Source: a virus. From it: a DNA stretch of 64,000 nucleotides. The notes beneath the pieces are model-generated. The model saw only the letters and a program-made list of their open reading frames with translations, was not told the DNA's origin and made no database searches. The translations under genes were made by a program, and so were the position numbers. Below are positions 40,144-51,464 of this stretch, piece by piece (the stretch's first letter is position 1; every line of letters starts with the position of its first letter). The stretch covers positions 36,268-100,267 of the IMG/VR virus record IMGVR_UViG_3300009609_000001. One strand, 5' to 3'.

Positions 40144-41898
40144 ATGATGAACGCACAACACCCCGCTGGTGAAGAAATCCAGGCAGGCGAACACGTGGGC
40201 CTCGATACCGATGGGAAGCTCAAGGAGATCGACAACTCTCGCCGGCTCAAGATTCTCCGCGCCGATCGGCAACTGTTGGTCGAGTGCTTCGCGGCGCTGC
40301 GGCAGTTCCGCTACCTGAACCTGCCCAAGATTCAATCCGTGCCGGCCGATGCCGAGGTTGTGGACATCCGCGAAGATTGGGATTCTCGCTCCCTGAGCAT
40401 CCTGCTGCGACACCCGTCGTTTGAACGCGTGCCAGACGGGGCGTGCATTCCGTACATCGAGAATGAGTACGTGACCGCCTTCGAGAACATCCCGCTGGAA
40501 AAGTCGCTGCTGGTCGTTCGGCACGCTCCCGGCGCTCCGGATTCATTTCGCGAGTCCGTGGCAGAGATTTCAAAAACCGTTGGTCAGCACATCGTTTTGA
40601 TGCCGCACGGGTATGAGATTGAATCTCTGGACGACGAAAAGCTGGCAGAGATTGGCTTGCAGCGCGTAGATCAGCCCAGCGGTGCAACCTACGGCAAGTC
40701 GCCAGTTACCCTATTCGCGGAGTTGCGGGCCGAAAACGAATCCTTGCGGAAAGAGTTCCGGCTGTTCGCGCTGGCCGTGTGCGAAATGCACGGTGGATTG
40801 GTCGCCATTGACGATCGCACGATGCACGCGATTAGTCCAACCGATACGCTGATGGTCCACGCAGACGAAGCGAACCGGCGGGTTGTGTACAGTCGGAGCG
40901 AGCAAACGACCAGGGGCTTTCCGCCCACGTCTCCAGAGCTGCGCCGGATGCAAGTCGATCAGGCGCGGGAAAGCGTCGGATTGCCGCCGATCGAATGGCC
41001 AGATGCACCGTTGCCCTACGATGCCGCGCAATTCGAGCGCGACTACGCCACGGCTTCCGGGCTGACCATTGAACAGAATCGAGAGCTGGGCCTGCGCGTC
41101 GAGCCGTGCGACTGCGGAGAGGGCGGGTGCAAGGGCTTCAAGATGGCGCATTCTCCGCCCGACGCCGGGATTGCTCTGGTCAACGCCATGAGCCACGCCA
41201 CGCGGCGGATTGCCCGGCGGCTCGTGGCGGAGCGCGAGCAGGCGGCGCAAGAGGCGATTCTGAAATCCGACGGCGGCACAACGGCCGTTCCGCCGATCGA
41301 CTCGCCGTGGGACACCTCGCGCAACATCCGTTCCGCCGTGGAACGTGCCGAGGCACGGCTCGTGAGGCAGCAAGTCAGCCTCACTGCGGAGCAAGCGGCT
41401 GCGGCGTACAAAGGCGATACGCGGCCAATTCCCGGTCGAATTGGCACACTGGGCATCATCAAGACCGATACGCCAGGCGAGCCGGTCGTGACGCGCCCCT
41501 TTAATGATCGTAGTATCCCGGATCCTGGCATTGTCCCGTGGGCAGAACAGCCGATGTTGAAGGCCGCGCCGTGGGCCGAAGAAATGTTGGCGGATGCGTT
41601 CAAGTCTGGGGAAGCGAGCCCTGCGTCACCATGCGAACCGCTGGCCGCTCGCTCAACGGAACATTCAATAGAAACCAGCGTAGGCGCAGCAGGTGAAGTT
41701 CGGTTGCCCTGTCCTAGTCGCGCAGGTCTCCTGGGGTCTGAGCGCGCGACATCAGCGAATCCCCGCGGGATGCGGTTCGAATCCGCCGATACGCTGGCTG
41801 ATAATCCCTGCCCCGAGTGCAAAGGCAGCGGAATCTATCAAGGGTTTAGCGTAGAAGAAAAGTGCAAAAACTGCGGAGGAACAGGAGCAGTATGTTAG
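40144..41898 (+). CDS. Large mosaic hypothetical protein with C-terminal CxxCxGxG Zn finger
   Basis: CPECKGSG...CKNCGGTG. Confidence 0.7.
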   Translation: MMNAQHPAGEEIQAGEHVGLDTDGKLKEIDNSRRLKILRADRQLLVECFAALRQFRYLNLPKIQSVPADAEVVDIREDWDSRSLSILLRHPSFERVPDGACIPYIENEYVTAFENIPLEKSLLVVRHAPGAPDSFRESVAEISKTVGQHIVLMPHGYEIESLDDEKLAEIGLQRVDQPSGATYGKSPVTLFAELRAENESLRKEFRLFALAVCEMHGGLVAIDDRTMHAISPTDTLMVHADEANRRVVYSRSEQTTRGFPPTSPELRRMQVDQARESVGLPPIEWPDAPLPYDAAQFERDYATASGLTIEQNRELGLRVEPCDCGEGGCKGFKMAHSPPDAGIALVNAMSHATRRIARRLVAEREQAAQEAILKSDGGTTAVPPIDSPWDTSRNIRSAVERAEARLVRQQVSLTAEQAAAAYKGDTRPIPGRIGTLGIIKTDTPGEPVVTRPFNDRSIPDPGIVPWAEQPMLKAAPWAEEMLADAFKSGEASPASPCEPLAARSTEHSIETSVGAAGEVRLPCPSRAGLLGSERATSANPRGMRFESADTLADNPCPECKGSGIYQGFSVEEKCKNCGGTGAVC

Positions 41899-41972
41899 AA
41901 TGTCGGGCGGGCCGCAGCCTGCAATGCTGCGGACACCGCCCTAAACACTGTCACCTTCTTAGGAGGCGAGCA

Positions 41973-42695
41973 ATGCCTGAAAAGCATTCTACAGCGACAC
42001 GCCAAAGGCCACAGCGCGGAGATTTGACCGGGAGAAAGTTCCGGCTCTTGATGGTTATCAAGTATGTCGGCAGGGACAAAAACAGGAACAGCCTTTGGCT
42101 GTGCCATTGTGAATGCGGCAAAGAAACGATCACATGCTCGGCCTATTTGAAAAACGGCGACACTAAATCTTGCGGGTGCCTAAATTCCAAGACGACGGTA
42201 GCTAGGAACACCACGCATAATTTGTACGGCACTCCAGAGCACAGAAACTGGACGGCAATGATCGCAAGGTGCGAAAACCCAAACGTCAAGGTGTTCCACA
42301 ACTACGGTGGGCGAGGCATCCGCGTGTGTGAGCGATGGAGAACATCGTTCGCAGCGTTCTATCAAGACATGGGTCTAAGACCAACGGCTCAGCACACAGT
42401 GGATAGGTTCCCTGATCCAGACGGCAACTACGAACCGGACAACTGCCGATGGGCAACAAGGGCGGAACAAAGTCGCAATCAGAAAAGGAATCGCTTGCTC
42501 ACGTTTAATGGGAAGGTGCGATGCCTTCAGGATTGGGCCACCTTGAGCGGAATTAGTGCAGCGTCGATTTCCAAGCGACTCAAGAAAGGCTGGACAGTCG
42601 AGCAGGCACTATCGACTCCGACCAGAGGAAAGCCCGGATCGGGCCTGAACCAGACCGAAGATTGCCGCGCGTGCGGCGGGAGCGGCGTGAAGTGA
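41973..42695 (+). CDS. HNH homing endonuclease
   Basis: WLCHCECG, SCGC, YGGRGIRVCERW, VDR..GNYEPDNCRWAT; AGGAGG RBS. Confidence 0.9.
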   Translation: MPEKHSTATRQRPQRGDLTGRKFRLLMVIKYVGRDKNRNSLWLCHCECGKETITCSAYLKNGDTKSCGCLNSKTTVARNTTHNLYGTPEHRNWTAMIARCENPNVKVFHNYGGRGIRVCERWRTSFAAFYQDMGLRPTAQHTVDRFPDPDGNYEPDNCRWATRAEQSRNQKRNRLLTFNGKVRCLQDWATLSGISAASISKRLKKGWTVEQALSTPTRGKPGSGLNQTEDCRACGGSGVK

Positions 42696-43183: not shown

Positions 43184-43239
43184 GGTATCAGATTCCCTGA
43201 GCCACGCAAAGCCATTCACCCTGGCCGCGTGTGCTCATG
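43184..43239 (+). promoter_or_regulatory. Bulged-A hairpin copy 1 plus start-codon-sequestering stem (portal)
   Basis: GGTA TCAG ATTCC CTGA GCC; rival stem TGAGC-CACGC...GCGTG-T-GCTCA(TG). Confidence 0.85.
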
Positions 43240-44892
43240 CCATCCATCAACGGCAGTAAATCCCGCCGAGACGATCCCGCCGGCAAGCATCGCGGCATCC
43301 CGCCAAACTTCGGCCGCGGCGTCGTTCCCCACGTTGCTACGTTCGTCGGCTTCATCTCCAGTTTCTCCAAGAGCTACCGGCCCAGCGACGAGGCCCTGCG
43401 GCATTCCATCGAGCAAGCCCGCTACATGCGGAACGACACCTCGATTATGGAATGCCTGGAGGCCCGCCAACGCGCTACGGCGCTGCTGAATTGGCACATC
43501 GAGCCGGAAGACGAGAAAGACCCGGAGCAAGTCGAGCTGGTCGAGAACCTGACGCGGATCGTGGAATTGACGCCGCGCTTCACGGAGTATCGACGCTGGC
43601 TCCTGGAAGCCATTTGGTTCGGCCGAGTGGCCAGCCAGAACATCTACGGCTGGGACATCCGACCCAGGCAGAAGAAACGCCTGTACGTCCGCCGCTGGAT
43701 GCCGATTCACGGCGACAAGCTGGTATTTCGCTTCGACGACGGGACCGGGAAGTACAGCGACGATCAAATCGGCATCAAGTACACGCAATTCGTCGATGCC
43801 GAGGATTTCAGCGGGCGATTCGAACTGGAGCCGACCGACTACGGCATGGCCTACTTCCTAAAGCCCTGGGAGCGGTCGCTGCTCACGGTCCATCGGCACA
43901 TGATCGAGGATGGGGCTTACGAGGATCCCCAGAGCGCCGGCAGAATCCACGGCGTCGGAATTCGGGACAGAATCTACTGGACGTGGTATCAAAAGCAAGA
44001 AGTGCTGGGGATGCTGATAGAACTGATCGAGCGAACCGGCATGGGGTTCAACATCTGGTATTACCCGGCCGGGAATGATCAGGCTTATCAGGACACCGTA
44101 GAAGCCGCCAAGAATCAAAGCGGCCAGAATGCCGTGCTGATTCCCCGCACTCCAGGTGACCCGGCGCTAGACGGCTACGGATATGACCGCATCGAGCCGT
44201 CGGGAAGTGGAATCCAGAACCTCAAGGATGTGATTCACGAGTTCTTTGGCCACCAGATCAAGCGCTACATCCTGGGGCAAACGCTGTCGAGCGAAGCGGA
44301 CGCCACGGGGCTGGGGAGCGGCGTCGCTGATTTGCACTTGGAATCCTTTCTGCAAATCGTCAAATACGACGCCACGAACTTGGAAGAGTCGATCACCACG
44401 GACCTGATCGAGCATCTCAAGCGGTTCAACTTCCCGGGGTCAAGTCATTTCCGGGTGAAGTTCAAGATCGACACGGAAGCCGCCGACGTGCAAGCCAAGC
44501 TGCAAGCCGTGTTCACCGCCTGGCAGATGGGCGCCGCTGTCCGCACGGCCGACGTGTTCGACATGATTGGCTTGTCGGTCCCTGGCCCGGATGATCAGGT
44601 ATTGGCCAATCCGCAGTTGCAACAGCAGCCGGCGCAGGAAGGGCAAGAGCCGCCGAAGTCTCCGCATCAAGCCGTCCTGGAAGCCCATTTGAACGAAGAG
44701 CCGAACGCGCACGGGGAATCTCCGCAGCAGGCGTTGCTTGAGGTCCTGACGCCCAGCAACAGCCCGGCGTCGGACGTGGCAGGCAAGGTGGTTCCACGGG
44801 GAGTAACGCGGCGGAGCGGGAATTGGAATATTACCCAGTACAATCGCAGCGGCTGGTCACGGGCGCTGAAGTTGTGGGGCGTGAGCATCTAA
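43237..44892 (+). CDS. Portal protein (Mu gp29/DUF935-like)
   Basis: LLEAIWFG, ERTG, IKRYILGQTLSSE...GLGSGVADLH. Confidence 0.85.
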   Translation: MPSINGSKSRRDDPAGKHRGIPPNFGRGVVPHVATFVGFISSFSKSYRPSDEALRHSIEQARYMRNDTSIMECLEARQRATALLNWHIEPEDEKDPEQVELVENLTRIVELTPRFTEYRRWLLEAIWFGRVASQNIYGWDIRPRQKKRLYVRRWMPIHGDKLVFRFDDGTGKYSDDQIGIKYTQFVDAEDFSGRFELEPTDYGMAYFLKPWERSLLTVHRHMIEDGAYEDPQSAGRIHGVGIRDRIYWTWYQKQEVLGMLIELIERTGMGFNIWYYPAGNDQAYQDTVEAAKNQSGQNAVLIPRTPGDPALDGYGYDRIEPSGSGIQNLKDVIHEFFGHQIKRYILGQTLSSEADATGLGSGVADLHLESFLQIVKYDATNLEESITTDLIEHLKRFNFPGSSHFRVKFKIDTEAADVQAKLQAVFTAWQMGAAVRTADVFDMIGLSVPGPDDQVLANPQLQQQPAQEGQEPPKSPHQAVLEAHLNEEPNAHGESPQQALLEVLTPSNSPASDVAGKVVPRGVTRRSGNWNITQYNRSGWSRALKLWGVSI

Positions 44893-44906: not shown

Positions 44907-45290
44907 ATGGAACGCAGGTCTTTCTTTGGAATGTGCATCGCGGCGATGGGTGGACTGCTTGGGACGCGCTCTGCCAAGCCGGAATTCAAGGGATCGGTTG
45001 TTGAGTGGCAGGGCGAGACCGGCACCCTGTCAAAGCCGCTGGAATCAGCCAAGCCGCTGGAATCAGCCGACCCATTTGAGGTAGTCGATGTCATGTACAT
45101 CGGCGAAGTTTTTGATGCCAATGGCGAAAGTGTCGATTGCATCACGCTACCGGTTCGCCGGATCGACGTGGATCGTTTTGGACGGGCCAGCAATTGGATG
45201 CGCGAAAATCTGACGACGACACCAAGTCGCGAGTGTCCTAAGCACGGAGATTTGATTTACGCAAAGCCGATCGGCGACAAGACAGCGTAA
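44907..45290 (+). CDS. Protein with twin-arginine-like signal peptide
   Basis: MERRSFFG plus hydrophobic stretch; 18-bp tandem repeat at 45033-45068. Confidence 0.6.
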   Translation: MERRSFFGMCIAAMGGLLGTRSAKPEFKGSVVEWQGETGTLSKPLESAKPLESADPFEVVDVMYIGEVFDANGESVDCITLPVRRIDVDRFGRASNWMRENLTTTPSRECPKHGDLIYAKPIGDKTA

Positions 45291-45349
45291 GCCGCACCCA
45301 TAACCTTATATGTTGTGCAAGTTTTTGACCCACAAGGGGGGTATTGGCG

Positions 45350-48300
45350 ATGGGAGTGCTGACCGTCTCCGAAGCAATCCGCGTGCTCTACAAGCGGATC
45401 ACTCCCGCCGTTGGCCAGAAGGAGTTCTGGTCCAATGAACCGCGCGATGCCGGTGGAAAGTGGACGACTCCGGCACATGAGGCTGTGGCACGACCAAAGG
45501 ACGACGACGAGCATTTTAAGTTGAGCGATCGCCCGTCGCCAAAGTTCGAGCCGCTTGTCGAGGATCCTCCTCGGGACGAGAAACAGCCGCCACCACAACA
45601 CGAACCACTCCCGGGTCAGAAGGAGATGTTCGGCGCGACGGTGTCTGCAAAGACCAAGCCGGCCACCAACGAAGCCCTCTGCGCCCGCATCAAGTCCGGC
45701 GACAGCGGGGCCGAGGATGCCCTGCTGAAACAGAATCAGGGTCTGGTCTACAGCATTGCCCGGCGATACACGCGCACCCCCGGCGATCTTGAGGACTTGG
45801 CCCAGGAAGGAAATATCGGCCTTCTGGAAGCCGCCCGGCGCTTCGACCCTGAGAAGGCCAAGCATTTTTCGACCTATGCCAACCTCTGGGTGCTGGCCAA
45901 GGTGGGAAACTACGCCAAGAAATCCTGGAAGCAGTCCACCACGCAAGTAGGTGGCGACGACGACGAAAGTTCTATCGACGATCTAGCCGTGGACACCGGG
46001 GACACCTCGCCTGGATCTGGACTGGAAACATCGGAGTCACAAGACAAGCTGCGCGCCGCGGTGGCAACGCTTCCTGAGCGAGAAGCCCTGGCGGTCCGAC
46101 TGCGGTTTGGTCTTGAAGGTAACGAACCGCACGAGTTCGAAGAGATCGGAGACAAGTTGGGCATCTCTCGGCAACGGGCGCACCAGATCACCGAGAAGGC
46201 GATGGAGAAGCTTCGCCGCACGATGAAATACCGGCGCGTGGCGGACGTGCTCAAGGCGCTATATGCGAAGAAGCACAAGCCCGCAGCCAATCAGGCGTCG
46301 ATGTGGGGAGAAGAACAAGAGAAGCTCCATCCCCGCGATGAGGGCGGGAAGTGGACGCACGCGCAAATGAGCGTCGCCAAGAAAGCCGTCGAGCACATGA
46401 AGGGCAAGTTGCACGGCCCGAAGAGTAAAGAGGACCTTGTGTTTGCGGCCGGCGATCACTACTTCAACGATTCCGAGGCACGAAAGCACTTTGATTCACA
46501 CAAGCATTTTCAGGAGGGCGTGAAGGCGCATTTGGAAACGTCGGAGCAACAGGCTGCGCCAGAACAGTCGGCGGCAAAAGAGCCGCACGAAATGACGCTG
46601 GACGAGTGGGTCCAATCGATGATTGGCAAGCCATATAGAAACGGCACCACGGGAGAAAATGCGGTCTATAACGAATTGGACTTGGCCCGCCTCAATCAAC
46701 TGCACGAGAATCATGTCGCCACCGAACTGATTCACGGGGGAACGGTTCTGCCCGAAGTGCTGGCCGATTATCCCGACCTGCAGCCGAAGGCCACCGAGAA
46801 GCCTCAAAACATCACCGGTAGATACTCCCGCACCCTCTCCACCCGCGACGCCCTGCGCAAGGTCATGTACGCCTCATACCGCGGGAGCGCATTCGTCGTT
46901 CCAAAGATGGTATCCCTACAGCCGCCAAAACCTGGCGTTGGCCAAAAGCACTTCGGATTCGCAGGCGATTCGGGAGTGCATCAGCCGCCGCAGGACCCGG
47001 AGTTCGAAAAGCTCCATCCTCGTGGAAAAGGCGACAAGGGCGGCCAGTTCGCCGAGAAGCCGGAAGGCGAGAAGGCAAAGGACGATGCCGAGAAGAAAAC
47101 CGAGAAGCCGGCAGCAGAATCAGCGCCACACCCTCTGGCGGCCAAGCATGCCGAGGCCAAGAAGCACGTCACGGTCCCTGGATCAGTCACGCTGTTGAAG
47201 CACGGTTCGGAGTTTCACGCCTTCGGGGACGATGCGGCCAAGCTGGCGGAACATGGCATTGGCGACGGTCAACACGCTCACTTCGGTATGGGGGAGTTAA
47301 ATCGGCACTTGACGAATCTGACGGGCAAAGGCCAGCGTGTGGCGATCGCCGAACCTCGCGGGAAAGAGCCGGTCGCCGAACCTCCAAAGCCGCCGAAACC
47401 GGAGCCGATTCCGGCCGAGCGCCCCCCTGCGATAGCACCGCCTGCCAAAGCCGCGCCAGCTCGCCGCGTTGCACCAGCGCCGGCCGTCAAGGCACAGGCG
47501 ACAAATCCACCACAGCAGCATCCCAGCGTCCAGCAAGCTCTGCGCGACCTGGAACAAAAGCACGGACTGAGGAAGTCTCCGCCGCATCAATCGGACGTTC
47601 AACTTGCGCCGGAATCGCCATCCAAGCCGCAATCCGTCAAGGAAATCATCGCATCCGTTCACGCCAAGCATGGATTGCCACCGCGAGCGAAGCCGGCACC
47701 ATCCAAGCCGCCAACCTCAATGACCCTGGCCGACATCGCCGCATGGAACAAAGCCGGACACTTGAAGATTCCGTCAAGCGTCACGTTGGCTGGCATCCAA
47801 GAACGCATGGCCAGCCGGCAATACGAGCCCGTCACCATCGCCAAGCAGAAAGACGGCACGCTGGCGGTCATCGGCGGAGCGGAAAGCCTGCTGGCTGCGG
47901 CCAAGAATCACGAGAAGCAAGTCGCCGTACGACTTTCGGACAATGCCCACAAGCACTTCGCACAGAACTCTCCCAAACCAAAGGTAGATCCGGAGAAGAT
48001 TGCCAAGGGAGTGAGCGCCATCAAAAGCCGCCTGATGAGCATTTCTGACCATTCCCCGATTCACGAGCGGGTGCATCAATCGCTTGGAACGAAGTCCGTC
48101 CGGGAAGTCGAGCAGCGATTGGACGCCGCGGCGCAATCCGGCGACATGAGCACACTAAAGGCAGTCGAGCAAGCCATCTGGCCGGATCGATACCCGAAGT
48201 CCACAAAACAAACGCTGTCCGACCTGTTCAAGAAATCCCATCAGCCGTCGTCGGAAACTCCAACCCCAGCACCGCACGAGACCCCCTCGGCATACGAGGA

Positions 48301-50077
48301 TTGGCTGCCATCTGAATTTCACCAGAACATTGCCAGCATTTCTCAAGAGCACGGCATCGACCCGGGCGACCTGCGCGAAGCAGTGGATGACCTGCACCGG
48401 GAATCCGTTGATGGCTGGCGAGAGCGTTTGAACATGTTCAACGCCTACCAAAGCAAAGGCATGACCCCCAGCAGCCTCAATGCCTGGCAGGAGTCCGGCA
48501 AGGACTTGGAAGAGTACCCCGGCATGGATGAAGCGGTAGCCAGATTCTCCGGGACGTGGGGCGAGCACGGCGGGTATGGCGCTGGCCAATTCAACGTCGG
48601 CAAGTCCAGAACCAGCGCTGCCGTAGACAGCCCAACAGAGCAATTCGTCGCCATGATGCTGGCGGGCCGGCCGCGGAAGCCGGTCAAGGACGAGGGGATG
48701 ATTCGCACGGCCGCCGCACAAGTTAAATCAGCGCAGCAGTATCGTCCGGCTAGTGGCGAGCAAGTTCCGTTCTCGCGCGAAGGCCGGAAAGAGCGATACC
48801 TGCGGGACCTTTGTGAGCATGTGAACAAAGCGGCCGGTGACTGCCACCCAAATCCCAGCGATCCGCAACGAAAAGCCGGAAACTTTCGCAAGGGCCACGT
48901 ATGGGTGCATGGCCTGCCCATCAGCATCGAAACCGCTAAGGGATTCAAGCGCTGGCCCGGGGGACCGCCTCTGGCTGCGCACTACGGCTACATCAAGGGG
49001 ACCAGCAGCCGCGACGACCAGCAGCTTGATGTATTCGTTGGCCCCGTGCCGTCGAGCCAAATCGTATTCCTGATCGACCACCGCAGAAAGAGCGGGCGAT
49101 TCGACGAGACGAAGGTCCTCATTGGTTTTTCCAGCCGAGAGCAAGCCGTCAAGGCGTATCTCTCGTCCTATCCTCCGGGCCGCAGGGCATTCCCGTTGAC
49201 CAAAATGACGATCTGGCAATTCAAGGCCTGGCTCAAGGAGGGCGACCAGCGTACCCCGGTCGAGCGACAGGTGAGCAAGTTCGCGCGGTCGCCAGCGGAC
49301 GTGCTCAAGCAGCTTTACAAAAAGATCAAGCCAGCCACCGGGCAGATCGGACTATTCGCTCCGCATCCCGCCAAAGCCTCAGTGCAGCATACCGCCACGG
49401 TCGCGCTGCCCGAGCCCAACTTCACCGGCGTTATCAAAGACAGCCTCGGCCGCGAGCAACACTACGTTGACGGCGTGCATGTGGCCGGGCCGCAAGATGC
49501 GGAGACGCCGAAGCCGGTCAAAAAGATCGAGCCAAAGCCTCGGCAGAAGTCCATGTTCGACGATGACGTGCAATGGGTCGAGGTCAACAACACCCACGTC
49601 GCGATTGAGCCGGATGGAAAGATCGTCCACGGTCCGGAAGGCATGGAAGGCAAGCAGATCGACGAGATCGAGAAGGTGGAGGAGCCAACGGATGTTATGG
49701 CCGAATCGTCGGAAGACACCGTAACGGAACCATCGCCATCTCCCTGGAAACTCTCCCGGGGCGACTTTCACAAGCAGCAGAAGCCGGGCTACGACGTTGC
49801 CGCCACGAACCGCGAACACAGGGAATCGGTCGAGCAAGCCCTGGCAGAAGGAAAGGATGTTCCCGCTGAGGCATATCGGGATTACGCTGATTTGAAGCCA
49901 AAGGCCAAGACGGTTGAGGAGGCGATTCGGGGCGTGGTGGCTCCGAAACCGATAGCGAGCGCTGCGGAACCAAGTACAATAGGATTGGAAGGCGGTCAAG
50001 AGCGTGCGCGAGGCACTGGTGGGGATTTCCTCCGTATGACGCAAAAACCGTTGACAAGTCAGCCGCAAAAAGCCTAG
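45350..50077 (+). CDS. Large polyvalent protein (sigma-70, MutS-I-like, ParB-like and InPase-like domains)
   Basis: DLAQEGNIGLLEAARRFDP...FSTYA; EEIGDKLGISRQRAHQI; EFHAFGDDA...GQRVAIAE; AGNFRKGH...HYGYIKGT...DVFVGP...FDE.KV. Confidence 0.85.
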   Translation: MGVLTVSEAIRVLYKRITPAVGQKEFWSNEPRDAGGKWTTPAHEAVARPKDDDEHFKLSDRPSPKFEPLVEDPPRDEKQPPPQHEPLPGQKEMFGATVSAKTKPATNEALCARIKSGDSGAEDALLKQNQGLVYSIARRYTRTPGDLEDLAQEGNIGLLEAARRFDPEKAKHFSTYANLWVLAKVGNYAKKSWKQSTTQVGGDDDESSIDDLAVDTGDTSPGSGLETSESQDKLRAAVATLPEREALAVRLRFGLEGNEPHEFEEIGDKLGISRQRAHQITEKAMEKLRRTMKYRRVADVLKALYAKKHKPAANQASMWGEEQEKLHPRDEGGKWTHAQMSVAKKAVEHMKGKLHGPKSKEDLVFAAGDHYFNDSEARKHFDSHKHFQEGVKAHLETSEQQAAPEQSAAKEPHEMTLDEWVQSMIGKPYRNGTTGENAVYNELDLARLNQLHENHVATELIHGGTVLPEVLADYPDLQPKATEKPQNITGRYSRTLSTRDALRKVMYASYRGSAFVVPKMVSLQPPKPGVGQKHFGFAGDSGVHQPPQDPEFEKLHPRGKGDKGGQFAEKPEGEKAKDDAEKKTEKPAAESAPHPLAAKHAEAKKHVTVPGSVTLLKHGSEFHAFGDDAAKLAEHGIGDGQHAHFGMGELNRHLTNLTGKGQRVAIAEPRGKEPVAEPPKPPKPEPIPAERPPAIAPPAKAAPARRVAPAPAVKAQATNPPQQHPSVQQALRDLEQKHGLRKSPPHQSDVQLAPESPSKPQSVKEIIASVHAKHGLPPRAKPAPSKPPTSMTLADIAAWNKAGHLKIPSSVTLAGIQERMASRQYEPVTIAKQKDGTLAVIGGAESLLAAAKNHEKQVAVRLSDNAHKHFAQNSPKPKVDPEKIAKGVSAIKSRLMSISDHSPIHERVHQSLGTKSVREVEQRLDAAAQSGDMSTLKAVEQAIWPDRYPKSTKQTLSDLFKKSHQPSSETPTPAPHETPSAYEDWLPSEFHQNIASISQEHGIDPGDLREAVDDLHRESVDGWRERLNMFNAYQSKGMTPSSLNAWQESGKDLEEYPGMDEAVARFSGTWGEHGGYGAGQFNVGKSRTSAAVDSPTEQFVAMMLAGRPRKPVKDEGMIRTAAAQVKSAQQYRPASGEQVPFSREGRKERYLRDLCEHVNKAAGDCHPNPSDPQRKAGNFRKGHVWVHGLPISIETAKGFKRWPGGPPLAAHYGYIKGTSSRDDQQLDVFVGPVPSSQIVFLIDHRRKSGRFDETKVLIGFSSREQAVKAYLSSYPPGRRAFPLTKMTIWQFKAWLKEGDQRTPVERQVSKFARSPADVLKQLYKKIKPATGQIGLFAPHPAKASVQHTATVALPEPNFTGVIKDSLGREQHYVDGVHVAGPQDAETPKPVKKIEPKPRQKSMFDDDVQWVEVNNTHVAIEPDGKIVHGPEGMEGKQIDEIEKVEEPTDVMAESSEDTVTEPSPSPWKLSRGDFHKQQKPGYDVAATNREHRESVEQALAEGKDVPAEAYRDYADLKPKAKTVEEAIRGVVAPKPIASAAEPSTIGLEGGQERARGTGGDFLRMTQKPLTSQPQKA

Positions 50078-50080
50078 TAT
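50051..50080 (+). promoter_or_regulatory. Sigma70-like promoter for the capsid operon
   Basis: TTGACA-N18-TAGTAT. Confidence 0.65.
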
Positions 50081-50100
50081 TACGGCTGAGAAACCGAAAA

Positions 50101-50157
50101 GGTATTGGACCAACCAAGCCCGCCGTCCCGCAAAGGGACGAGCGGGCTTTTTTATTT
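50101..50157 (+). promoter_or_regulatory. Bulged-A hairpin copy 2 overlapping an intrinsic terminator
   Basis: GGTA TTGG ACCAA CCAA GCC; AAGCCCGC...GCGGGCTT TTTTATTT. Confidence 0.9.
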
Positions 50158-50165
50158 GCCGAACG

Positions 50166-51464
50166 ATGCCTGCAACCTTAGCTCCAATTCGCACGCCTCC
50201 TCTGGACGAATACTCCGTCGAGCACGACGTGCCGATCTTCACGGAGCACACCATCGAGGTCGAGGGCGACAGCGGCGAGAAAGAGTCCGACTGCTACGGG
50301 CTGAAGGAACTCCAGTACATCACCGACAACCTGAACAACCGCATCGAGGATACCGGCGACTTCGTGCCGATCGTCGTCGGGCACACCGACCCGGAAGATA
50401 AATCGGTCAAGCCGCCTGTCGTGGGGTTCGCCGGCCCGTACAAGATCGGGCGTTTCGGCCGAACGAAACCGCGATGGGCCATCTTTGCTGAAAATTGGTG
50501 GACGCGCAAGGATCCCGCCACGGTCGAGCTAATCAAGCAGCATCCGCGGCGCTCCGTCGAGCTGTGGCGAGAGGATCGCTACGAGGATCGGTTCTTTGAC
50601 CCGATCAGCCTCCTGGGCGCAGACACGCCTCGTCTGGACCTGGGATTGATGTTCAGCCGAACCAGCGGCAAGAAGATTCGCCGCTACTCCGCCGTGGCAC
50701 CCAGCGGCACCAATACTTTCGCTCCGACGTTCGGGGATGAAAAGAAGAAGCTCAATTACGCCGGCCCAGAGCCGGACGACATTTCCTCCGAGGAGGGCGA
50801 TATGCCTAGCGTCGATGAAATCGTTCAGGCCCTGGAACAAACCGACGTTTTTCAGTGGGCGCGCGGGAAGATGGCCGAGGAATCCGGCGTTGGTGGCGAT
50901 GCCGATGACGCTGCGCCTCCTGAGGCTCCGCCTGCCGCCCCGCCACCAGCCAATCCGCCGCCCGGCGATCAGGAGAACATGAACATGCCCTACGCCAGAA
51001 CCGGCGACAAGGACCGCTACGCCCGCCTGGAGCGTGAGTTGCGGGAAACGAAAGACTTGTACGCCAAGACGGACCGCGAGAACAAGGCCCTCAAGGATCG
51101 TCTCGACGCCAAGGACCAGGAAACGACTCGCGCCGTCCGATACGCCCGCCTGCAAGAGCTTTCCATGCAGCACGTCCTTGACCCCGAAGAGGAAATCGAG
51201 GAAGTGCTGGCGATGGACGACAAGACGTGGGACAAGCATCAGGATCGCATCCTGAACCGCTACGAGCGAATCCCCGCCGGCCGCGTGCTGCCCTACGAGC
51301 GCCCCGCGATGCTCAAGAGCGAAGCCGCTGATTCGGCCGCGGAGAAGGAAATCGCCGAAGAGGCCGCGAACCTGGTCACTTCCAAGCGGAACGCTGGCGA
51401 GAAGATCACCTACTCGGCCGCCCGTGAACTCGTTGTCCAGCAGCGCAAACAAAAGCGAGCCTAA
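50166..51464 (+). CDS. Prohead protease/scaffold (Mu gpI-like)
   Basis: VPIVVGHT...RRSVEL...ISLLG..P, then acidic/Pro linker and coiled coil; precedes capsid genes. Confidence 0.75.
   Translation: MPATLAPIRTPPLDEYSVEHDVPIFTEHTIEVEGDSGEKESDCYGLKELQYITDNLNNRIEDTGDFVPIVVGHTDPEDKSVKPPVVGFAGPYKIGRFGRTKPRWAIFAENWWTRKDPATVELIKQHPRRSVELWREDRYEDRFFDPISLLGADTPRLDLGLMFSRTSGKKIRRYSAVAPSGTNTFAPTFGDEKKKLNYAGPEPDDISSEEGDMPSVDEIVQALEQTDVFQWARGKMAEESGVGGDADDAAPPEAPPAAPPPANPPPGDQENMNMPYARTGDKDRYARLERELRETKDLYAKTDRENKALKDRLDAKDQETTRAVRYARLQELSMQHVLDPEEEIEEVLAMDDKTWDKHQDRILNRYERIPAGRVLPYERPAMLKSEAADSAAEKEIAEEAANLVTSKRNAGEKITYSAARELVVQQRKQKRA

Follow-up and report, generated by a model that had tools for sequence, protein, structure and literature searches.

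Known systems and the locus under study

Some phages carry a whole RNA polymerase (RNAP) in the virion, as N4 and phiKZ do, and T4 carries the RNAP-modifying enzyme Alt. We know of no phage that brings a sigma factor in its virion. Here we analyse a gene of the IMG/VR virus record IMGVR_UViG_3300009609_000001, a sequence of 100,267 bp that has direct terminal repeats and is estimated to be complete. The stretch studied in detail, referred to as the window, comprises 64,000 nucleotides (bases 36268–100267 of the record) and coordinates refer to the window unless stated otherwise. The gene (45350..50077, plus strand) encodes a protein of 1,575 aa in which a sigma-70-family cassette, an InPase domain and at least three further modules are joined within a single polypeptide. 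We see an even chance that this is a polyvalent capsid-cargo protein of the phage type which delivers the sigma module at entry, where packaging, cleavage, ejection and RNAP binding are steps that we infer by analogy.

For DarB of phage P1 packaging into the head has been demonstrated experimentally. The protein is present in about 40 copies per virion and has an N-terminal targeting signal of 30 residues, and its gene adjoins the portal and protease genes (PMC9024508). Both DarB and, on our reading, the protein studied here are giant cargo proteins encoded beside a portal and a prohead protease. However, DarB itself has no sigma module and the 1,575-aa protein has neither methyltransferase nor helicase. 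More generally, phage polyvalent proteins were predicted to be packaged and injected in order to jump-start transcription, and T4 Alt and the virion RNAP (vRNAP) of N4 were named as their transcription arm (Iyer, Burroughs, Anand, de Souza and Aravind 2017, PMC5512222). In common with the phage-type proteins of that study, ours is large and multi-domain, is encoded among virion genes, contains an InPase domain and has low-complexity linkers. Unlike them it carries a sigma cassette and a repeated junction motif, and it has no LPD, MuF or zincin-peptidase domain (profile scans of the 1,575-aa protein detected no LPD domain). T4 Alt and N4 vRNAP are delivered by the virion and reprogram or supply transcription at entry, and our proposal follows the same logic. 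It differs in the cargo: Alt modifies host RNAP enzymatically and vRNAP is a whole polymerase, whereas here a promoter-specificity subunit alone would be delivered.

Among known sigma factors, group 1 and group 2 (SigA/RpoD, RpoS) are closest in sequence across regions 2.1–2.3, 3.2 and 4, and the extracytoplasmic function (ECF, group 4) sigmas share the layout of sigma-2 and sigma-4 with a short linker. In contrast to all of these, the cassette is embedded in a 1,575-aa protein, has no region 1.1 or sigma-3, has a diverged region 2.4 and carries Q in place of E585. Stand-alone phage sigmas (PHROG families 351 and 1740; those of SPO1, cyanophages and jumbo phages) include the family phrog_351 which our cassette matches, but they are separate genes used within one infection and not part of a cargo protein. 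A survey of jumbo phages reported stand-alone sigmas only. The word 'sigma' does not occur in the main text of the polyvalent-protein paper (PMC5512222) or in a virus survey of NAD/ADP-ribose (NAD/ADPr), and the full-text literature yielded nothing relevant on packaged or injected sigma factors or on the HPR motif described below.

A sigma-70-family cassette within the protein

The cassette occupies residues 100–297 (45641..46234, plus strand), with region 2 at 45722–45928 and region 4 at 46058–46216. Residue numbers are counted throughout from the TTG at 45344 and not from the ATG. In the Pfam search Sigma70_r2 (PF04542) matched residues 127–195 with 63.2 bits (cut-off 24) and Sigma70_r4 (PF04545) matched residues 239–291 with 50.2 bits (cut-off 24.1). 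The initial annotation of this DNA had reported region 2 and region 4 motifs at this place; both are above the Pfam cut-offs and the nucleotide ranges given for them were correct. The sigma-70 superfamily model of NCBIfam (TIGR02937) reached 101.8 bits against a cut-off of 42.9, and the sigma part matched phrog_351 with 151 bits. Judged by these profiles the sigma module is genuine, a compact sigma-70-family cassette inside the proposed cargo protein.

The cassette consists of a partial region 1.2, region 2, an acidic linker that resembles region 3.2, and region 4. There was no match to the sigma-3 domain (regions 3.0/3.1, PF04539). About 42 residues separate region 2 from region 4, and this acidic linker resembles region 3.2 in its GDDEDSHLGDFIED stretch. 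The best sequence matches in the PDB were SigA, RpoS and HrdB, all of them primary or group-2 sigmas, over one block from part of region 1.2 to region 2.3 and a second block from 3.2 to 4.2. The two-domain layout with its short linker and the SigA/RpoS-like sequence thus combine an ECF-type architecture with a primary-like sequence.

The motif of region 2.2 which binds beta-prime and the RNAP core is intact (DLAQEGNIGL, reference DLIQEGNxGL). In region 2.3, Y430 and W434 are kept and W433 is replaced by L (E. coli sigma-70 numbering). The recognition helix of region 4.2 retains R584, R586 and Q589, with Q in place of E585 and H in place of R588. As far as can be told from the sequence, the determinants for core-RNAP binding are conserved in the cassette. 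Across the complete 100,267-bp record the sole Sigma70_r2 match and the sole Sigma70_r4 match above the cut-off both lie in this open reading frame (ORF). T7-type RNAP families had no match in the phage, and the control search was likewise without a match.

Relatives of the cassette

To collect relatives we ran a full HMMER search with residues 95–345 against 1.84 billion representatives, which gave 83,363 matches, and used the best 150. Among these 150 we found five giant proteins of 2,095–3,434 aa, on contigs of 35–98 kb. Their cassette has the same compact form and aligns as one stretch or as close consecutive stretches. Four of the five carry ART-PolyVal: P0042 (3,434 aa, cassette at 1592–1845), P0050 (2,095 aa, 938–1177), P0052 (3,017 aa, 2170–2429), which also has a weak match to an M90-like peptidase, and P0112 / P0187 (3,105 / 3,655 aa, 2457–2684) with a weak GNAT match. 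The remaining one, P0069 (2,899 aa, cassette at 115–358), is a DarB-like antirestriction protein with methyltransferase and helicase which matches phrog_10089 with 1,385 bits. It comes from a 98-kb contig of an ENA metagenome, and the sigma cassette is N-terminal in this methyltransferase-helicase protein. Head packaging has been demonstrated by experiment for the founder of this family, to which P0069 ties the sigma cassette. P0094 (739 aa) and P0169 (290 aa) are shorter and have the same cassette.

We then computed FastTree trees with supports for the 150 cassettes. With all columns the seven polyvalent cassettes and P0169 formed a single clade with a support of 0.92. With the columns of regions 2 and 4 only, the six long proteins formed an exclusive clade (0.86), which the two shorter proteins joined weakly (0.42). 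Its members have derived characters in common: they have lost sigma-3, their region 2.4 is degenerate, and region 4.2 contains an S-(K/R)-Q-R-(A/V)-x-Q-I helix. None of the eight departs from Q406 and E407 in the core-binding motif. Conservation within the clade is highest in regions 2.2–2.3 (0.61) and lowest in region 2.4, where it is 0.39 compared to 0.60 in other sigmas. The recurrence of such a clade in giant ART-PolyVal or DarB-like proteins appears, from these comparisons, to be new here.

Searches for relatives found no other long protein in which this sigma cassette is joined to InPase. Locus searches in IMG/VR with P0050, P0052, P0042 and P0094 gave no matches. Scanning GTDB genomes with P0187 gave 79 loci, all of which matched its ART-containing C-terminal part and none of which had the sigma cassette. 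In the JGI metagenomes a scan with the 1,575-aa protein found no relatives, and a scan with P0187 found the sigma cassette only on the TARA contig of P0187 itself. Gut-phage contigs with compact sigma matches were considered as further cases and rejected as their sigma genes are of normal size. Tandem compact sigma modules, two or three per polypeptide, occur in P0038 (MBI1743839.1, Candidatus Acetothermia), P0039, P0079 and P0181 and at L002 11433–12420. The modules of P0038 are split by a short RLHPRETKW linker which recalls the HPR junction.

Junction repeats

Four copies of a junction occur in the protein, all encoded on the plus strand. Each comprises an amphipathic helix ending in LY that is followed by P-x-x-GQxx(L/M/F)(F/W), and three of the four continue with an acidic run and then (L)HPR(D/G)xxxG(K/Q)(W/F). 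J1 (residues 6–43, 45359..45472) has the helix ending in LY, GQKEFW and PRDAGGKWT, and J2 (residues 298–343, 46235..46372) the helix ending in LY, NQASMW and LHPRDEGGKWT; the two match each other with E 2e-6. J3 (residues 500–572, 46841..47059) is degenerate and shows a helix, GQKHFGF and LHPRGKGDKGGQF (DNA repeat D13). J4 (residues 1316–1345, 49289..49378) has the helix ending in LY and GQIGLF and matches J1/J2 with E of about 0.003. A further motif of the Qxx[LM]F type, GQKEMFG (45614..45634, plus strand), ends a Pro-rich linker directly before the sigma cassette. We regard J1 as a candidate capsid-targeting or processing signal. A search for the junction motifs in the capsid or scaffold proteins of the same phage led us to reject the idea that they are shared, as among the phage genes the motifs are confined to the cargo ORF.

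The cassette is bracketed by junctions on both sides in the 1,575-aa protein, in P0042 and in P0069, the last with the variant NPWTxYxGPRGGxGWK. One-sided junctions were observed downstream in P0052, which has a looser RDDHGQF upstream, and upstream in P0112. P0094 has a junction at its N-terminus and P0050 has no HPR-type motif beside its cassette. HPR-type motifs are enriched in the sigma-bearing polyvalent proteins, where we counted 14 in 16.9 k residues, compared to none in 24.2 k residues of polyvalent proteins with InPase only and none in 54.5 k residues of other sigma matches. For GQxxLF the respective counts were 14, 3 and 1. The junction motif is also absent from 12 InPase-bearing LPD polyvalent proteins.

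GQ(K/R)S(L/M)F(D/E), GQIGLF and RQLSLFDE presumably resemble the beta-sliding-clamp-binding motif QL[SD]LF, which is speculation on our part. Such clamp-like motifs are located at residues 24, 91, 316, 1333 and 1400 of the ORF and were also found in P0042, P0050, P0052 and P0112. In T4, gp55 and gp33 are tethered to the clamp gp45. By analogy GQxxLF may tether released modules to the sliding clamp of the host.

InPase and the other modules

The InPase domain (PF18823) covers residues 1175–1298 (48866..49237, plus strand) and scored 111.3 bits against a cut-off of 26.8; the range given for an InPase-like domain in the initial annotation was correct. Where the family has the motif DGDxxD, which is kept in 12 InPase homologues, this protein reads DDQQLD (within residues 1222–1229), with Gln in place of the middle Asp and Asp in place of the adjacent Gly. 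The E of the IE motif and the FDE.K motif are retained. Activity may be reduced, or the adjacent Asp may be used instead. The closest homologue (53% identity) is a protein with LPD1 and PF18798 domains from a metagenome-assembled genome (MAG) of the Pirellulaceae. InPase relatives in general are LPD-type polyvalent proteins or proteins annotated as virion, internal-head or minor-head proteins. InPase was described as restricted to the phage polyvalent class and proposed to clear pyrophosphate and thereby help early transcription (Iyer et al. 2017, PMC5512222). The C-terminal third of the protein matches PHROG families annotated as minor head protein, virion structural protein and DarB-like antirestriction.

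For the segment at residues 608–675 (47165..47368, plus strand), which had been described as similar to MutS domain I, the evidence is mixed. When residues 611–672 were scanned alone, MutS-I (PF01624) was the top Pfam family, and in the ESM-Atlas MutS_I clusters come nearest, at 0.87. However, the Pfam score of 14.9 bits (E 0.033) is below the cut-off of 20.6 and we therefore treat the segment as a candidate and a lead only. A single-sequence model shows a beta-beta-beta-alpha-beta-alpha unit with a predicted local distance difference test score (pLDDT) of about 70–77, and structural searches with this poor model (Foldseek, VIA) gave no significant match. The segment previously called ParB-like (residues 828–865, 47825..47938, plus strand) matched neither Pfam nor PHROG families at a threshold as loose as E 10. 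It reads IGGAESLL and lacks the arginine of the ParB GxxR motif, and the model confidence is low (pLDDT 41–45); the ParB assignment is unsupported.

Composition bears out the Pro/Lys/Ala-rich linkers between the domains. One such stretch, residues 680–825 (47381..47818, plus strand), is Pro/Ala/Lys-rich (P 20%, A 16%) and predicted to be disordered. Structure prediction, which had been suggested alongside the initial annotation, gave the MutS-I-like unit at moderate confidence and an unassigned small four-helix bundle (residues 884–945, 47993..48178, plus strand; pLDDT 80–88 in the predicted model). The two single-sequence AlphaFold models were poor overall, with mean pLDDT of 51 and 44, and structural searches with the first of them were uninformative; for the bundle the best VIA Z was 7.1, a value without significance for helical bundles. 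Over residues 346–1170 (825 residues) in mid-protein we detected no homologues, including among shorter proteins. Two further repeats, C1 (residues 446–492, 46679..46819) and its partner C2 (residues 1484–1530, 49793..49933), are both on the plus strand and match each other with E 3e-5; C1 is helical and ends in DYPDL-PK.

Reading frame and gene order

According to the ORF listing one frame is open without interruption from the TTG at 45344 to 50077, which would give 1,577 aa from the TTG. The Shine-Dalgarno sequence AAGGGGGG ends 8 nt upstream of the ATG at 45350. A database protein (P0002), recorded on two contigs, is an identical copy and also has 1,575 aa, and hence the ATG is the likely start. 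The GC content of the three codon positions (GC1, GC2 and GC3) is even along the ORF, with values of about 0.6–0.75, 0.36–0.50 and 0.66–0.77, respectively. Thus the Pro-rich stretches are coding in the same frame.

The gene sits inside the late structural block. On our rough gene map this block is on the plus strand and extends from about 70.5 kb of the genome across the end of the record to 9.2 kb; the remaining genes form a 60-kb block on the minus strand. The upstream neighbour is a Mu-type portal gene (43231..44892, plus strand; PF06074 with 140 bits, phrog_113). The downstream neighbour (50166..51464, plus strand) encodes 432 aa with an N-terminal half that resembles Mu gpI/P2 gpO and a coiled coil as its C-terminal half. 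The latter protein had no Pfam or PHROG match. For its N-terminal half the ESM-Atlas clusters were Mu-like_Pro, Phage_GPO and DUF2213 (features 0.93–0.96, structure template modelling (TM) score 0.50–0.58), and on this model-based evidence we take it to be a very divergent member of the Mu gpI / P2 gpO / DUF2213 prohead protease-scaffold group. A scaffold-like gene, the major head protein and a Mu gp36 adaptor follow further downstream. An ORF of about 1576 aa between portal and protease, as initially described, is therefore what we observed. The position had also been called the usual one of MuF; this applies to the gene order but not to the domain content, as neither the ORF nor any other part of the phage contains a MuF domain.

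Proposed mechanism and alternative explanations

Under the delivery model the protein would be made late and recruited to the prohead via the N-terminal junction motif, a step proposed because of the precedent of the 30-residue capsid-targeting signal of P1 DarB. The neighbouring prohead protease would probably cut it at or near the junctions and the cargo would be ejected along with the DNA. In the new host the freed sigma cassette would bind core RNAP via region 2.2 (DLAQEGNIGL) and region 4, with the short 3.2-like linker threading RNAP in the manner of an ECF sigma linker. It would then steer RNAP to phage promoters with a primary-like -35 and a private -10 element, while InPase and the DNA-binding modules would assist on the incoming DNA. 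The reading as a polyvalent protein of the head module, already put forward in the initial annotation, fits the gene position, the InPase domain and the sigma cassettes fused to ART-PolyVal or DarB-like proteins in the giants. The sole sigma of the phage is encoded inside a late structural operon, which fits use in the next cycle better than a late sigma. We also propose, with a little less than even confidence, that a compact sigma clade, bracketed by the conserved junction, circulates among phage capsid-cargo proteins and that virions deliver sigma together with RNAP-modifying or DNA-protecting enzymes, capturing core RNAP at DNA entry.

Several results weigh against delivery of a working sigma factor. 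Region 2.4 is diverged (Q437 to A and T440 to G in E. coli sigma-70 numbering), and together with the partial divergence of region 2.3 this means that promoter melting may be impaired. By k-mer enrichment in 67 upstream regions we found no phage-private promoter. Phage_Mu_F (PF04233) had no match at E up to 1 across the 100-kb record, and no peptidase family matched the protein, so that the zincin-like metallopeptidase that is frequent though not obligatory in polyvalent proteins was not seen. Finally, a flank could be read for one relative only (TARA contig L167), and the upstream genes there, for a methyltransferase and a Holliday-junction resolvase, are of phage replication type and not head genes.

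The main rival reading makes use of the same observations. It holds that the packaged cassette uses regions 2.2 and 4 to bind host core RNAP but is unable to open promoters, and hence acts as a competitive inhibitor of the host sigmas, a decoy that would shut off the host or block sigma-dependent defence at entry. Core-binding residues are kept whereas no part of the cassette varies more across the clade than region 2.4, the W433/W434 pair is lost in most clade members, no private promoter motif was found and in four relatives the cassette occurs together with an ADP-ribosyltransferase, an enzyme typically used to inactivate or modify RNAP. We nevertheless regard such a decoy as unlikely. ECF and group-3 sigmas lack the tryptophan pair and are still functional, and variable -10 readers are expected if every phage has its own promoters. 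In region 4.2 the residues R584, R586 and Q589 of the -35 recognition helix are kept, and the derived S-(K/R)-Q-R-(A/V)-x-Q-I helix found across the clade would be hard to explain were DNA contact dispensable. Somewhat less likely again is that the polyprotein or a fragment of it drives late transcription in the same infection, in which case the fusion to the head module would be incidental and nothing would be delivered. The gene is inside the late block, a conserved element precedes late genes in six to seven copies, and stand-alone phage sigmas acting in the same infection are the rule: an alignment-based IMG/VR scan gave 80 sigma loci of which none (0/80) was in an ORF >566 aa. But the starter of late transcription is not normally encoded solely within the late operon, and the recurrent fusion partners (ART-PolyVal, DarB-like, InPase) are hallmark domains of injected or packaged proteins. 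Furthermore, the repeated element appears to consist of a small covarying hairpin and a terminator and shows no consistent -35/-10 pair among its copies.

That the sigma fold has been repurposed without any role at RNAP is improbable in our view. Its helix-turn-helix (HTH) domains would then serve as DNA-binding or pilot modules riding the genome end, comparable to the ArdC-N, MutS-I or ParB domains of other polyvalent proteins. DNA-binding domains are indeed common in polyvalent proteins (PMC5512222) and the possible MutS-I segment may be a DNA binder within the same protein, but the best-conserved stretch of the clade is the beta-prime-binding DLxQEG (Q and E in 8/8) and not the DNA-contacting helices. 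The least credible explanation, very improbable in our view, is an artefact: the ORF would be a chimera of the assembly, or a decaying fusion from which no single protein is expressed. The overall architecture is a singleton, with InPase and this cassette together in no other protein. Yet the frame stays open over 1,576 codons and GC by codon position is uniform, the ATG has a good Shine-Dalgarno sequence, the same protein is present on two contigs, the internal junction repeats span the whole ORF and analogous fusions recur in unrelated giant proteins.

If delivery is confirmed, this would be the first sigma factor shown to enter a host from the virion. Packaging a sigma would let a phage seize host transcription by minimal means, ahead of any phage gene expression, and the early promoters of such phages may escape host-based promoter prediction. 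The clade and the junction motif provide a sequence handle for finding further cases, the junction motif is itself a candidate for a portable capsid-targeting or processing tag, and the idea is directly testable with a domain of 200 residues.

Repeated late element and further genes of the module

Directly after the stop codon of the cargo gene (50051–50150, plus strand) we observed the repeated element GGTATYRGA...YYRAGCC. Other copies are located at 43184, 51485, 58876, 61432 and 63491. Its small stem shows compensatory changes (TCGG/CCGA, TCAG/CTGA, TTGG/CCAA), and in most copies it is followed by a strong terminator-like hairpin, a T-run and the start of the next gene. It resembles a nut/antitermination or attenuator site that recurs along the late operon. 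A promoter-like TTGACA-N18-TAGTAT (10/12 matches) overlaps the 3' end of the cargo ORF.

Between the portal and the cargo gene there is an ORF of 127 aa (44908–45290, plus strand) which begins with MERRSFFGMCIAAMGGLLG, a twin-arginine (Tat)-like signal peptide. It had no family match and could be a secreted or membrane moron within the head module. Upstream of the portal, the gene at 40144–42695 (plus strand) encodes a 584-aa protein with no terminase match and with a C-terminal zinc finger of the CxxCxGxG type, and an HNH endonuclease gene overlaps its end.

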